64,000 bases of DNA from a phage. Of this stretch, positions 3,265-23,040 are shown piece by piece. Numbering within the stretch: position 1 is the stretch's first letter; every line of letters starts with the position of its first letter. The translations under genes were made by a program, and so were the position numbers. The DNA is taken from the sequence record NC_101835.1. One strand, written 5' to 3'. The notes below the pieces were generated by a model that was given only the letters and a program-made list of their open reading frames with translations, was not told where the DNA came from and searched no databases.

Positions 3265-3555
3265 ATGATGGATTTAATTCTAAATATTGATAACGCAGGA
3301 GAGTTTAAAGACGATGGTGTAACAAGCATGGACAAACCCTGCTCTGCTAAGGTTGACTCAAAATGGACCTACAAGTTTGACGGAGAGATCTTCGCAAATG
3401 ATGAGAAGGTTGTAGATGCTGCAGCCATTTTAAACGCTCTAGGGTACGACCCTGTGAATTCTTTGATCAAGGATCCTGTTGAGTTTGCAGAGTATGTTCG
3501 AAAAATGGCAGATCTTGCTGTGGATATTTTAAAAACTATCGACAACAAGCTGTAA
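3265..3555 (+). CDS. hypothetical protein
   Basis: GTGAGGTG RBS before ATG. Confidence 0.5.
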   Translation: MMDLILNIDNAGEFKDDGVTSMDKPCSAKVDSKWTYKFDGEIFANDEKVVDAAAILNALGYDPVNSLIKDPVEFAEYVRKMADLAVDILKTIDNKL

Positions 3556-3561
3556 AAACTG

Positions 3562-3590
3562 TTGACACAACGCTTCAGATTTAGTATCAT
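3562..3590 (+). promoter_or_regulatory. sigma70-like promoter (TTGACA-N17-TATCAT)
   Basis: TTGACA at 3562-3567, 17-nt spacer, TATCAT at 3585-3590, about 50 nt upstream of hpf-like ATG. Confidence 0.45.
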
Positions 3591-3639
3591 TGTTTTCAAA
3601 GAGAGATAGTTATTCCCTCTTCCTTAAAAGGAACACGTT

Positions 3640-3960
3640 ATGCAAATTGAAATCACTGGCAACAATGTAGAAATCACAGAAGGTATGGTATCTTTTATTT
3701 CCCGCAAAATGTCCAAGCTGGAGCGTTTACATCCCTCTGTTAACTATGCACGTGTGAGTGTAAAAGTTGAAAATGATCACCAGGAAGTTATGGCGTTCAT
3801 TTTTGACAATTCTGGAAAAGAAGTTATTGCCAAGGCTAAAGGCAGTGATGCTTACGAGGCAACTGACCGTATGGTAGATGTTGCAGCACGTCAGCTGGCT
3901 AAATGCGGTGGAAAGAAAGGTAAGGGGAAAGGCAAAGTAAAGATTGACTTTGGAGAATGA
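3640..3960 (+). CDS. hpf: ribosome hibernation promoting factor / RaiA (S30AE) family homolog
   Basis: N-terminus MQIEITGNNVEITEGM.. recalls bacterial HPF MQLNITGNNVEITEAL..; KLE and ARQLAK segments; lysine-rich tail. Confidence 0.7.
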   Translation: MQIEITGNNVEITEGMVSFISRKMSKLERLHPSVNYARVSVKVENDHQEVMAFIFDNSGKEVIAKAKGSDAYEATDRMVDVAARQLAKCGGKKGKGKGKVKIDFGE

Positions 3961-4097
3961 GGTGCTACAATGGGTGTGATTAAGAAATTAGTCCCAAATG
4001 TAGAGATTGCATGCTTTGAAATTATGTTTGCAATCGCAGTTGTAGTTAATGTGTTAGGTTACGGCTATTAATATCAAATAATTGAGGAGACCTCTAA

Positions 4098-4367
4098 ATG
4101 AAAATTAAATTATTCCAAACTGAGCTGGCAGACAAAAATTGTGGACTGGTTGAAGGCATGATTGTTGAAGCACAACCAGTGGACTATATGAAGGTGGTTC
4201 GTGATGCCCTAGGTGAAGGTTTTGATCTGATGGAGCCAGCTCTGCGAGAAGATGTTATCGAGATGGCTAAAAAGCACACACCTGAAGGTTTGGTGGTGTT
4301 TGTTGCACCGGGTAACGGAGAAGAGTTGATTGTAACTCCTGATGTGTATGAGATTGTAGAGGAATAA
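4098..4367 (+). CDS. small acidic protein, paralog family 3
   Basis: GAGGAG RBS; MKIKLFQ.. ending ..TPDVYEIVEE; shared architecture with 5534-5791 and 6471-6758. Confidence 0.55.
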   Translation: MKIKLFQTELADKNCGLVEGMIVEAQPVDYMKVVRDALGEGFDLMEPALREDVIEMAKKHTPEGLVVFVAPGNGEELIVTPDVYEIVEE

Positions 4368-4458
4368 TCCTGCTTGGATTAGCATACTTCCTCGCTAAGG
4401 AAGATTTGTAATTATTTGTGGGAAAGGAGTCCCAATCTCTTACCAGAGGTGATACTAT

Positions 4459-4722
4459 ATGATTGTTTATTTTAAAACTTCAGGTGGATACCCTGATTCT
4501 CAAAGCTTGATCGGAAAAACGTGCACAGCATACTCACCTCTTGATGAGGAGGTAAGCGATATTTTACGAAATATGTATCGGATTGACCCCCAAGAAGCCT
4601 TTGATCAAAACCTTGTATTTGTCAAGGGCTCAGATATGAAGTCTTTGGGAGCATTCCCTGAAGCAGATGATGATGCCGTTTATTCGTTCATGACTCCTTT
4701 TGAAGCTATGGTTGTTGGGTGA
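4459..4722 (+). CDS. small acidic protein, paralog family 1 (copy C)
   Basis: GAGGTG RBS; GKTCTAY / FVKGSDMKSLGAF resemble family 1. Confidence 0.5.
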   Translation: MIVYFKTSGGYPDSQSLIGKTCTAYSPLDEEVSDILRNMYRIDPQEAFDQNLVFVKGSDMKSLGAFPEADDDAVYSFMTPFEAMVVG

Positions 4723-8906: not shown

Positions 8907-9115
8907 TCAACACACATGCATCTGAAGAGACATCCGAAGGAGTGACCATATGTCCCTTGGATGAGCCAGTTAAAGAGGAAAACTTAGATTCTGAGGACTC
9001 TTCATCTTCGTCCCAGACAGATCCTGAGGCTGATGACCTGACGTGGGAGGACATCGTAGATATCTGGTTCTCTATTATGCCTGAGCACGAAGAGTTCAGA
9101 GGTGGTAGACTATGA
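8903..9115 (+). CDS. small acidic serine-rich protein
   Basis: ATG after AGGTGG, coupled to upstream peptide; replaces the longer track ORF 8702-9115 which reads through the promoter. Confidence 0.35.
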   Translation: MINTHASEETSEGVTICPLDEPVKEENLDSEDSSSSSQTDPEADDLTWEDIVDIWFSIMPEHEEFRGGRL

Positions 9116-9234
9116 AGCACCGAGCCCACACAGGTTCCTCATGCTAAAGCATGGCCTGAAGAGGCAAACGTGCATAATTCCTGCGCATTTGGACGTATAA
9201 TCCTGTTCACACTCTCATTTCCAGAGGAGATTTT

Positions 9235-9450
9235 ATGAAGATAGAGATATTTGGTGGAGCTGACAACACTCGTGGCCTGATTTACCTTGAATTCGATGAA
9301 TCATACCTGCCAGAGGTGTTAAATATAGACTCTGTTGCTGAGGCTTTGGGAGTAAACCCTAAAGAACTCCACTCTTGTGCTGAGATCGATGGTTGGGAAG
9401 AGACCATGAACATTGATTTCAGTGAAGTAGAGGATGAACCGCTGGACTGA
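9235..9450 (+). CDS. small acidic protein
   Basis: GAGGAG RBS; MKIEIFGG.. acidic; last rightward gene before the non-coding zone. Confidence 0.5.
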   Translation: MKIEIFGGADNTRGLIYLEFDESYLPEVLNIDSVAEALGVNPKELHSCAEIDGWEETMNIDFSEVEDEPLD

Positions 9451-9800
9451 CACACAATTAGCTGCCCGGCTAAAGTGCTGGAAGCACCTATAACACATCT
9501 TTCAACTAAATTTCCTACCACCACAATCACTTACCTCCCACACATGACTGTTTGCTTGTTTAGTGAGCAGTCATGCCTTGACATTCTTGCCTATCCTGAT
9601 AAAATTAAGTTCTTCTCTTTTCTTTTACCGAGTAATTCGGGTTTTCTGTTCTCTTCGGTTTGAAGGGGTATGGAGATACACCTGAGTGAACAGGGTGAAC
9701 AACCGAACCTTTGGCTATGGCATTAGCATGGCGAAGCGGACGGGTGACGAAAGAGGGGCCGGAGGACACCAGTCACTGCCATATGATATATGGGTGATAA

Positions 9801-10342
9801 CCTGAAGAGTCTGAATAAGTGTTTAAGTACCAGTCAGAGGAAAAGGTGAATGGTAGCCGAAGGGGGGAGGGGGGTTTCTTGTATCTTTAATTTGTATATT
9901 ATGTATACACTTGTAAACCAATCTAATCTGAATCTGTTTACCACACAAAGCGGATAGAGACAAATATTGCCTATTAAACTTGAATTATTTATAGAAAATA
10001 CCACAACACTACTTAAGTCTTTGATTTTACACACAAATCCTGCAGATATTCACCCTCCATATTTAACATACTTGTAACATATTCCATACTCTACCTGCCC
10101 GATCAATTCACCCAACTACATCCCCATATTTTCCCTGTCTGTACTACCCCTGCCCCGCCGGGAGTCCCATCATATCTGGCTTTCCAGCAAATATCACACC
10201 CACAAATATCATTGCCTGAAGAGGGTTTCATCCCATAATACCTGCCTTACCTGAAGAGCGCTTCATACACCACGTAAATTTTTTAATTGACCTCCCCCTG
10301 CCCCGCCGGAGAGGTTGGCTTTTCCCACACAGACCTGAAGAG
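9801..10342. repeat. dispersed direct repeats (CCTGAAGAG x4; CCCCTGCCCCGCCGG x2)
   Basis: CCTGAAGAG at 9801, 10215, 10250, 10334; CCCCTGCCCCGCCGG at 10148 and about 10295; GACCTACAGG x2 near 10390-10450. Confidence 0.5.
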
Positions 10343-10918
10343 TCAGCCAGAAATATCTGAATAGGCCCAATTCTACCACGATTTTGACCTGACCTACAGG
10401 GAGGCCCGAAGGGTCTAGCTTTCAGCTAGAGTCCTTGCAGGACCTACAGGAGCGCTGCCAGGCGGACGGAATGGGAATACTTCTCATTCTTATAACAATT
10501 CTCAAATATCGAGGCAGTGAGAGAAATTAATAGGCCAGGCCGTTCACACAGTGGCACAACATTTGCAACCTATTTTGTGTGGATGAATGAGAATACCTAT
10601 CATTATGAGAATAGTTATCATTACTGGCAATTTAACATAATACCCATTATGCGCACCACTGGCGATCCATACAGGGATTGATAACATGAGTTACTGTTTA
10701 CGCATATAACAATTATATTTATTACTATTTGTGTTGGGTATAGTTAGCAGCCGATAGATTAGATATTGACCTGCAGACTTCCAACTGTCTAGACGTCTAA
10801 ACGCCCACACAGCAAGGATTATACATACACAACTGAATGTAAACAGGGCCGCAAAAATGCTACCATACCAGATTGTAAATTTTTCATGCAGCACTTGACA
10901 AAGAGGAGGAAAACTTGT

Positions 10919-10960
10919 CTGACATACTGTGACATAATATGACATAATAGTGACACACTG
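10919..10960. repeat. tandem 10-11 bp iterons (TGACATA-type)
   Basis: tgacatactg / tgacataata / tgacataatag / tgacacactg in direct tandem. Confidence 0.5.
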
Positions 10961-11052
10961 GGCATACTCAACACTGGATACAATAACAATTGTTACTATT
11001 GCATGCCTCACTGTTCACGCATAGATGATAAGCCATGCCATTCGTTTGCATG

Positions 11053-11312
11053 ACAATAATTAACTTGTTTACAATCTTTCACTGGCTATGCCAGGTGACC
11101 TTTGGTCACCCCTTCGGGTGTTTCTATGACATAATATAAAAGCAGGGCAACTATTAGAAGATCTATAGTTGCCTTGCTTGTTATGTCATGATTAACTAAA
11201 TACAAGGCAACTATGATCTGATTAATAGATTGCAGACAAACTATCACGGGGGTGATGGTTACTGCTTTTATATTATGTCGCGACTCCGTCGCGCCATGCC
11301 ATTCGTTTGCAT
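11053..11312. repeat. inverted-repeat element bracketed by 19-bp direct repeats
   Basis: CCATGCCATTCGTTTGCAT at 11053-11071 and 11294-11312; inverted arms 11127-11146 and 11262-11279; palindrome 11147-11174; GGCAACTAT 9-mer x4 in alternating orientation. Confidence 0.5.
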
Positions 11313-11972
11313 AGTTGCCTTATTGTTACAGGTAAAATAATTACATTATTAATTATTTCTTATCTTTCTCTTAGTCATCTAATGATTCCAGTCAGTATAG
11401 TAATGTACAGTAAACATTAGACGACTAAATATTTCTCTGTTTATGATAACTCACCGTGACAATTTCGGACTGTTTACGAAAAATGTTGACACCTAAGCTG
11501 ATTTATGTTATGCAGTTTACACGAATAATTATTTTATGCAGGTATTGACTATTCCGTTATTCTGTGGTTGGAATAAATACTTTGCAGGCTATAGAATGGC
11601 GTGCGTACATGAATTCTGAGATCTGGCGGCTATAGTTATACTCGATTTTTCACGTAGAACACGCTTTTTAGTTTGTGTAAGTGTATGACTTATAAGAATT
11701 TTTACTTGTTGACAAGATATTGAAGATCTGCATCAGGTTAAAATTTGTGCAATAGCTGCATTACGTGCAATTTTGGAAGGGAAAACGGGTAAAAATAGCC
11801 CTGCTACCACACAATGAAAAGTTATGCAATAGTTATTTTACATGTATATTTGTACAGTGTGTGGGGTTGATGGCTCGTCAATTATTCCACTTGCCAGGTA
11901 GGGCCGTTTATGGTAGGAGAAGAGCAGACAAAAAGAAAGGGGCCTAAGCCCCTTGATAATTCAGTTAAAAAA

Positions 11973-12392
11973 TTATAATGATTCGTATATTTCAAAAATC
12001 CGATTTGCCAGGTCGTTACGGTAGCGGAATTTTTCCTCACGTTTGATCATAAGATCTTTATAGCCGTACTCTTTAAGCACTTCATTAACTTTATGGCGGC
12101 ATACTTTCATATTATCCTGCGCGTCACCAATAAATCTGTTGCTATGGTGCATGGCTTTAATTTCTTCTTCCAGGACCAGGGCAACTATGCGGACCGGATC
12201 AAGCTGATAGGCGGTAACATCCATGCGGCATTGTAAACGGCTTTTTACGTCTGCCACCGGATATACTGCAACCTCTTCCCCGTCAACATTGACAATAATT
12301 AGTTTACCATCGATTTCGAATCCTTTCGCCGCCGGACCGTGACAAAAAGCGTTATCAAAGCTATATGCCGGATTATTAGATTTAATGTTCAT
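11973..12392 (-). CDS. hypothetical protein
   Basis: AAGAGG RBS before ATG; last gene of the leftward array. Confidence 0.55.
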   Translation of the reverse strand: MNIKSNNPAYSFDNAFCHGPAAKGFEIDGKLIIVNVDGEEVAVYPVADVKSRLQCRMDVTAYQLDPVRIVALVLEEEIKAMHHSNRFIGDAQDNMKVCRHKVNEVLKEYGYKDLMIKREEKFRYRNDLANRIFEIYESL

Positions 12393-12536
12393 GGTGTTTT
12401 TACCTCTTAGTTAATTTTCTTACAACTTCCCTTCAAAAAAGAATATAGCAAAACTGCCGATCCCTGTCAACCAGGGATAGCATAATTTTTATGTGATCAA
12501 GGGGCTTTATTGCCCCTGACCATGTAACTTGTTGTA

Positions 12537-22069: not shown

Positions 22070-23040
22070 GCCCACCAGGTTTACAAGCCTTCATTCTCCC
22101 CTACCTGGTCAGTTAGGTCCTGCCAGGCTGGCCCCGCCAGGTTGCAGCGGTTAGCGCATCAGGTTAGAAAAATTTTTTGAAAAGTGTTGACAGCGGCCCC
22201 GCCAGGTGGCACAATATACCTATCGAAAGGACGGCAGGCACTGGTGACGGGGGAGACAACCACCGGGGATGGGCGCTGCATAAAATGAGAACGATTATCA
22301 TTATCATTTAAAAATTTATGCAAAAAATCCTTGCTTTCTTTGTCCTGTGTGATACTATAATAACAAGCCGGGGCAACAGGGGCCGGGAGACAATCACCGG
22401 GCCTGCCCGTTATTCTGCAAACGAGAATGATTATCATTCAAAATTCTAAATGAGAACTCCTCGCATTTAATAAATTTAATTAGCACGCTAATTACCTACC
22501 GTGACAATTATATATAAAATAATACCTCCTAAAATATTTCCATATACAAATTTTAAAAATCCATTTCTGAAAACGAAAAATCGATTTCGTCCCCAAAAAT
22601 TTCAGGTCGAGATCCGGAACGATTTCCAGAAAATCCGATTTAGAAAACGAAAAACAGATCGAGTACTGAGAAATTTATCGAGAAAAATTTTCAGAAAATC
22701 CAAGCCATGAAATGAAAAGTAGATCGAGTACTGGAAAAATTGTACCGCAACCCACTGATAGTGATGGGTTTTCCGTCATAAATCACTAAGAGTGAGTGGA
22801 GAAAGGTATGGTGGAGAGGTGTGTATGTGTGGGAAATCTGTAATGGTGGCCTGAAATATGGTGCAAACGGCTAGATAGATTGGCACAATTTTCCGCGCCT
22901 GTGTTGAAAAAATCCATTTTAGTTTTCGATCCATTTTCTGATTTTCTAAGGATTTTAAAATATCCTGGTAGGTAAAATATCAAAAGGAGGAAATCCATTT
23001 TAGAAATCCCCCTTATACTTGATATGCCAGGAATTTTCAA
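22070..23040. repeat. non-coding repeat island (GC-rich motifs, tandem about 60-nt units, AT-rich iterons)
   Basis: GGCCCCGCCAGGT x2; two units GGGAGACAA(C/T)CACCGGG...GAGAA(C/T)GATTATCATT; 22500-23040 has repeated AAAATCCATTT(T/C) and AGATCGAGTACTG. Confidence 0.5.

Follow-up and report, generated by a model that had tools for sequence, protein, structure and literature searches.

The four tandem TGACA-type repeats at 10920-10960 of the window, the 64,000-nucleotide stretch of phage DNA (NC_101835.1) analysed here, are shown by comparison with related genomes to belong to a hypervariable array of short repeats that flanks a direct terminal repeat (DTR), and the first unit of this array, array A, lies inside the invariant sequence of the right DTR boundary. 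Array A would start at the first base past that boundary, given that the ends of the window phage are placed by sequence identity to relatives at both boundaries. The preferred reading, to which we assign a probability of roughly 0.45, is that array A is a cis element of the genome terminus, in which the outer half of the cut site at the right end recurs and with which the packaging machinery probably interacts. Arrays of short repeats beside a terminal repeat are a known kind of feature, and in the rV5-like group they have not been described before.

With about 120 phage records matching it at 90-95% identity, the window is that of a Vequintavirus, a coliphage of the rV5-like group. Array A sits in an ORF-poor gap of about 2.5 kb (9450-11973), with genes on the + strand to the left and genes on the - strand to the right, such that the two blocks converge. 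In the rV5 paper the region is drawn as a "non-coding" box, the word "repeat" does not occur, and no trace is reported of the bidirectional terminators that would be expected between genes 163 and 164. No description of these repeats, or of a vequintavirus origin, was found in the literature. A tRNA scan found no tRNA in the window, an Rfam E-value search of 9000-12500 gave no match, and none of the eight flanking proteins matches a Pfam family above the curated cut-off, the only PHROGs families to which they belong being of unknown function. The non-coding region is otherwise 90-100% identical among relatives, and identity dips at 10375-10450, 10920-11025 and 11050-11125.

Array A contains four well-formed units on the + strand with a TGACAYAMT core, which can be read directly from the sequence as TGACATACTG (10920-10929), TGACATAATA (10930-10939), TGACATAATAG (10940-10950) and TGACACACTG (10951-10960). 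When the phase is followed further along the + strand, three degenerate units, GGGCATACT, CTCAACACT and GGATACAAT (10960-10984), keep it up to about 10984. The four tandem repeats of about 10 bp on which the original prediction was built are therefore present, and two analyses agree with the direct reading. Tandem Repeats Finder reports a period of 10 over 10920-10968, with 4.9 copies, 75% matches and a score of 47. No 5-mer other than TGACA has four or more consecutive copies at a spacing of 9-11 bp in the 64-kb window, and when the window was simulated 300 times with a first-order Markov model, no 5-mer array of this kind arose. The predicted span of 10919-10960 was correct at its end, but its true first base is 10920. 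With TGACA starts at 10920, 10930, 10940 and 10951, the predicted spacing of about one helical turn holds in the window (10, 10 and 11 bp) but is only approximate in relatives, where it runs from 7 to 11 bp. The non-random feature of array A is its clustering and phasing, and over the genome as a whole the motif shows no enrichment: TGACATAAT is present three times in the window against 0.84 expected, and TGACAYAMT occurs six times against 3.0 expected, with five of the six within 10920-11135. A search for the motif elsewhere, which the original prediction had proposed as a check, revealed no operator-like reuse in the rest of the 64 kb.

The DTR-equivalent segment of the window measures 459 bp (10461-10919) and is defined by identity to the ends of the EdH4 record. 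With a slash marking the boundary, its left end reads ...GCTGCCA/GGCGGACGG, directly before 10461, and its right end reads ...AAAACTTGTC/TGACA, between 10919 and 10920. The EdH4 record starts with GGCGGACGGAATGGG, the equivalent of window position 10461, and ends with ...GAGGAGAAAAACTTGTC, the equivalent of 10919, and the 459 nt at its start match the 459 nt at its end with 100% identity. In the left-end copy of EdH4, array A, beginning TGACATAATGTGACC, comes immediately after AAAACTTGTC. Because the EdH4 repeat ends at the equivalent of 10919 and array A comes next, the array begins directly outside the DTR. A palindrome, TGTC-T-GACA (10916-10924), can be read across the right boundary, and its right half is the core of array A unit 1.

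Terminal redundancies of 458 bp were reported for EdH4 and HdK5 by Korf et al., who linearised their PacBio assemblies at positions where most reads stopped abruptly (PMC6563267). The DTR segment is found at both ends of the HdK5 record, the bov11CS3 record begins at the same left-boundary base as EdH4, and the ECP2303 record begins at the first TGACA of its own array. Across all 25 records listed, the DTR-equivalent segment measures 458-460 bp. None of the 26 related loci departs from the string AAAACTTGTC/TGACA or from CACTTGACAAAGAGGAGRAAAACTTGTC, which ends at 10919, and the left boundary is likewise present in all 26. Because the DTR ends are located at the gap, the convergence of the two gene blocks would be the junction of the physical genome ends, and the blocks would seem to converge without terminators between them because they run toward those ends.

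One further record carries the terminal repeat in another form. In Shigella phage CM1 (MK962749.1), two tandem copies of 523 bp, 100% identical to each other and each with an annotated hypothetical ORF, occupy 3482-4527; they start at the DTR left-boundary base and stop after array A, at the equivalent of window position 10981. In this one deposited record, the tandem copies are probably the terminal repeat joined head-to-tail when the record was re-opened to match rV5. A synthetic DTR-DTR junction used as a query found no record with an internal junction of the EdH4 type. Vequintaviruses or their relatives have elsewhere been called circularly permuted or headful packagers (PMC8407724; PMC13211470; PMC3475682), and the papers that call them circularly permuted, of which there are several, mostly used transposase libraries.

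Variation of the array was followed in 26 related loci, by measuring the stretch from the right DTR boundary to a 20-mer, GCCATGCCATTCGTTTGCAT, that is common to all 26, with a single-base variant in a few, and that ends the hypervariable stretch in the window (11032-11051, + strand). Between these anchors there are 21 alleles, 83-237 nt long, with one to six exact GACA-core units each and, after them, degenerate units that keep the phase. Neighbouring GACA cores in the relatives are spaced by 7 bp (four cases), 9 bp (14), 10 bp (13) or 11 bp (nine). Among 42 distinct GACA-anchored units, T stands at -1 in 34, Y at +4 in all 42 and T at +7 in 35, which gives the consensus TGACAYAnT, with a variable spacer and with every unit in one orientation. 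Every one of the 21 alleles has an exact GACA unit as unit 1, and the average agreement with the unit consensus across these alleles declines from 8.5 of 9 positions at unit 1 to about 5 of 9 by unit 7. Of the four units of the window, bov11CS3 retains the last one alone; this phage is viable, so three of the four units are dispensable.

Array A is followed by a second array, array B, which in the window is a short remnant (10988-11024, + strand) with units of 15-16 bp and a core of ACTGTTYACR; relatives carry from two to about 11 of its 15-16-bp units. The outer flank on the left side of the DTR (10375-10460, + strand) is hypervariable as well, with lengths of 51, 52, 83-85 or 101 nt and with one or two copies of a module of about 33 nt that ends in GGAGYGCTGCCA. 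The motif of this module differs from that of array A, and its copies are few. In the window, the left flank also has an extra, hairpin-rich insert of 50 nt between GACCTACAGG direct repeats. A scan with a 33-nt anchor found two loci in IMG/VR and two in metagenome contigs.

A second copy of the 20-mer GCCATGCCATTCGTTTGCAT lies at 11293-11312 (+ strand), 261 bp from the first, and the two copies bound a module rich in inverted repeats. The module includes a perfect inverted pair of 18 nt (11128-11145 and 11262-11279) and four GGCAACTAT motifs in both orientations. In FV3 there is one 20-mer, which is followed directly by AGTT, and the 261-bp module is absent, as would be expected from a deletion or an insertion between direct 20-mer repeats.

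In the proposed mechanism for end formation, the concatemer would carry, in order, the non-coding DNA of the right end, one DTR copy, array A, array B and the leftward genes. Each unit of array A would reproduce the outer half of the site where the right end is cut (...AACTTGTC/TGACAY...), such that the array could offer multiple half-sites for the terminase machinery at the place of right-end cutting and DTR duplication. Unit 1 alone would be essential, extra units would modulate the cut rather than determine it, and further units might be gained or lost through slippage or unequal exchange. This reading is favoured by the invariance of both boundaries, by the hypervariability of the adjoining stretch, by the exactness of unit 1 and the decay of later units, by the conserved positions beyond the core and by the occurrence of the same layout in T7. 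The sister genus Phapecoctavirus also lends it support, through a DTR in the homologous region, a right boundary of similar sequence and short repeats on the left outer flank. That exact units go down to one and that spacing ranges over 7-11 bp argue against a rigid cooperative protein array. Against the end-formation reading stand the right side of the Phapecoctavirus DTR, which has no comparable array, the similarity of the boundaries across genera, which is modest, and the papers that describe vequintaviruses or relatives as circularly permuted or headful packagers.

The closest likeness is to T7. In the T7 sequence, the terminal repeat (1-160) is followed at 175-340 by 13 YNTAAAG units that are mostly 13 bp apart, short repeats of the kind called SRL and SRR beside the terminal repeat. 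Both phages therefore have a short exact terminal repeat followed by an array of short, like-oriented units whose core is conserved and whose spacers vary. By sequence comparison, array A appears to be an array of the T7 type, with a DTR whose ends are fixed in relatives, immediate adjacency and short units in one orientation. T7 belongs to an unrelated family, whereas the window phage is a myovirus of about 136 kb, and both the motif and the period differ, with units 13 bp apart in T7 and a period of 9-11 bp here. The T7 array starts 15 nt past the terminal repeat, but the vequintavirus array starts at the very first base, and the opposite flank of vequintaviruses has a different repeat rather than the same heptamer as in T7. 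Unlike in T7, the vequintavirus copy number is highly polymorphic between close relatives and a second array of 15-16-bp units follows. The analogy would give array A a position rather than a mechanism, since to our knowledge the function of the terminal-repeat-flanking repeats of T7 itself has never been established.

A single position of the homologous non-coding region is the first or last base of many Phapecoctavirus records, and in one phage of this genus, Schickermooser, that region holds a 329-bp exact terminal repeat, which had been given as 328 bp (PMC6563267). The right boundary is AGAGAACTTGCT/CAACAT in Schickermooser versus GGAAAACTTGTC/TGACAT in the window. Without sliding, the right boundaries of the two genera agree at 13 of 24 positions (P about 0.01), with the agreement concentrated in AACTTGYY/YRACAT, and the left boundaries agree at 5 of 24, which is no match. 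Short ATGGCAAKAAT repeats occur on the left outer flank of the Schickermooser DTR, and no TGACA-type array was found to the right of it. Separately, ACAATTCYCAAATATC, at 10494-10509 and some 35 nt in from the left end of the DTR, recurs at about 37-52 of the Schickermooser DTR. It is one of the few blocks conserved between the terminal repeats of Vequintavirus and Phapecoctavirus, and it is a candidate for a left-end recognition element.

A variant of the end-formation reading takes the TGACAY units as alternative sites for right-end cutting or termination, such that a single stock would contain a ladder of right ends in steps of about 10 bp and a unique left end. We consider this variant distinctly unlikely. 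Its model is the N4-like phages, in which the DTR, of 390-440 bp, is precise at its left end but can stop at any of about six positions on the right (PMC3896407). The vequintavirus left boundary falls at the same base in EdH4, HdK5, bov11CS3 and CM1, and the right boundary falls at 10919 in EdH4 versus the equivalent of 10981 in CM1, which resembles the N4 pattern; the difference is that right-end variation in vequintaviruses is suggested indirectly, by the tandem duplication in the deposited CM1 record. If the ladder did exist, the length of the DTR (459 bp in EdH4 and apparently 523 bp in CM1) would change in evolution as the cut shifted along the array, and the case would be N4-like with the responsible sequence element identified. 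The adjacency of array A to the right-end boundary also recalls packaging sites in other phages. At the R sites of lambda cosB and the hexamers of P1 pac, several short protein-binding repeats lie beside a packaging cut site. The number and spacing of the cosB and pac repeats are fixed and their binding protein is proven, whereas array A has one to six units at 7-11 bp.

The best-surviving alternative to the end-formation reading is that array A has no sequence-specific function and is a by-product of slippage or of end processing beside the DTR, a possibility of some weight, though we hold it to be unlikely. As concatemers form and the DTR is duplicated, DNA just outside the terminal repeat would repeatedly be nicked, displaced, resected and recombined, and short duplications close to the boundary would arise by slippage or unequal exchange and then decay. 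The 21 alleles in 26 genomes, with extra units that are clearly dispensable, are what such a process would leave behind, and the fall in unit quality away from the boundary would reflect new copies made at the boundary and older ones drifting. The left DTR flank is likewise hypervariable, with duplicated modules close to the boundary, and other rearrangement has occurred nearby, as in the absence of the 261-bp module from FV3. Unit decay with distance and hypervariability of both flanks fit the by-product and end-formation readings equally well. What speaks against a by-product is the position-specific conservation inside the units (T at -1, Y at +4, T at +7), their single orientation, and the maintenance of an analogous array in the unrelated phage T7. 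Plain slippage from a single seed also does not predict array B, which has another unit length and a related core.

The original prediction had read the repeats as a binding array for an initiator or a repressor, and the corresponding alternative, in which array A consists of replication-origin iterons or is an operator array for a repressor or other regulator, is improbable. Part of that prediction stands, in that phased units in one orientation with conserved flanks make a reasonable protein-binding array, and direct tandem repeats at about one helical turn, as seen in the window, resemble the iterons of origins. Downstream, at a distance of 100-450 bp, there are an AT-rich stretch and numerous inverted repeats. 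The secondary origins of T7, which lie close to the ends of its genome, are a precedent for an origin near a terminus. A role as the binding array of an initiator or a repressor in particular nevertheless has no support. The array abuts the right boundary of the DTR, and hence the genome terminus, rather than a gene-regulatory or known origin context, and neither the number nor the spacing of its repeats is conserved among close relatives. At 9-11 bp, with a spacing of 7 bp in some alleles, its units are half the length of classical iterons (about 17-22 bp). No initiator gene was recognised next to the array, and in Pfam and PHROGs the eight flanking proteins showed no recognisable initiator-like or DNA-binding domain, though a novel DNA-binding protein may be among them. 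The motif is absent from promoters elsewhere in the 64 kb. GC skew in the window follows the direction in which the genes are transcribed and so carries no separate signal of an origin, and the rV5 paper came to the same conclusion genome-wide, with no origin defined by its skew analysis.

Array A could instead be a cluster of sigma-70 promoters reading rightwards, in which each of at least three units supplies a -35-like TGACA and an extended -10-like TGnCATAAT, but this is quite improbable. A promoter scan found CTGACA-18-CATAAT with an upstream TG, matching at 10 of 12 positions, at 10919-10948, and ATGACA-18-CATACT lies at 10939-10968. The most conserved positions of the unit (TG, A and the final T) coincide with key positions of the extended -10 element, and scores of at least 10 are reached in eight of 21 alleles as opposed to 1.6% of shuffles. 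The remaining 13 alleles, those of rV5, EdH4 and bov11CS3 among them, have no good promoter. Moreover, no + strand gene lies downstream, where the next genes are on the - strand, and the rV5 annotation has no promoter in the region.

The array units also show a possible resemblance to half-sites of winged-helix regulators of the OmpR/PhoB type (PhoB TGTCA, TorR CTGTTCATAT, PhoP TGTTTA), as well as to T7 primase sites (GTGTC) and the ACA site of MazF. The spacing of the PhoB and PhoP sites (11 bp) is unlike that of array A, and no likeness to a host regulator, to primase or to MazF was adopted.

Action of the repeats as a transcribed repeat RNA, in the manner of a pseudo-ToxI-like decoy, or as part of a 106-aa ORF (10691-11011, - strand) is very improbable, and both readings are largely excluded. 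ORFs over the array are annotated in PMBT16, CM1 and FFH2, but allele lengths (83, 106, 112, 114, 124, 133, 134, 152 nt and more) fall into all three classes modulo 3, such that the reading frame is not kept and these ORFs are not conserved coding sequence. For a role as RNA, the precedent is phiTE, a Certrevirus of the same subfamily (Vequintavirinae), in which a pseudo-ToxI repeat RNA expands to escape ToxIN (PMC3475682). The phiTE repeat is, like array A, a non-coding tandem repeat that expands and contracts (PMC3475682). The two differ in that the pseudo-ToxI locus lies between co-directional genes next to tRNAs, is not positionally homologous, and has units that act as RNA and show no sequence similarity to array A; at 36 nt, the ToxI antitoxin repeats are also far longer than the array units. 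The lack of an Rfam match argues against an RNA as well, and the single-stranded DNA structure of the array region is ordinary (z = +0.99).

Phages of the rV5-like group are often considered for phage therapy and biocontrol, and their genomes are as a rule deposited as circularly permuted, with an arbitrary start. An array at the boundary of a fixed 459-bp DTR accounts for the "non-coding box" of rV5 and for assemblies that break or duplicate at this place. It provides a concrete cis element for the study of end formation in a large myovirus, and a hypervariable marker that separates close relatives. For annotators, it is a caution that neither ORFs nor origins should be called at the array, and it corrects the origin or operator reading.

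Several minor observations concern the surrounding sequence. A stretch of about 900 bp with no annotated gene (9450-10375) is 96-100% identical in 13 relatives, which exceeds the identity of the flanking genes. It contains, on the + strand at 9578-9605, a near-consensus promoter (TTGACA-16-TAAAAT, with TG), and the fold of a candidate RNA at 9612-9895 is not unusually stable (z = -0.96). For this stretch, which lies just inside the right genome end, a packaging signal, a replication signal and a small RNA are all possible.

Palindromes occur inside the DTR-equivalent segment. A palindromic 19-mer, AATGAGAATAnnTATCATT, has six matches with at most three mismatches, against 0.38 expected, at five sites (10470-10488, 10586-10604, 10604-10622, 22284-22302 and 22420-22438). 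Three of the sites lie inside the segment, and two similar copies lie inside the 329-bp DTR of Schickermooser. The two tandem copies overlap a promoter-like sequence on the - strand, TTGCCA-17-CATAAT (10630 to 10602). The 19-mer has a possible resemblance to the Fur box, GATAATGATAATCATTATC. Another palindrome, GTCTAGACGTCTAAAC (10787-10802), includes the perfect octamer AGACGTCT, the consensus of the MetJ met box; one match to this 8-mer in 64 kb is within chance expectation.

Among the matches to the region are 18 or 19 unannotated "Campylobacter phage" records (MG0656xx), named as phages of Campylobacter jejuni, which are 92-95% identical over it. Their labels are likely to reflect mislabelling or contamination.
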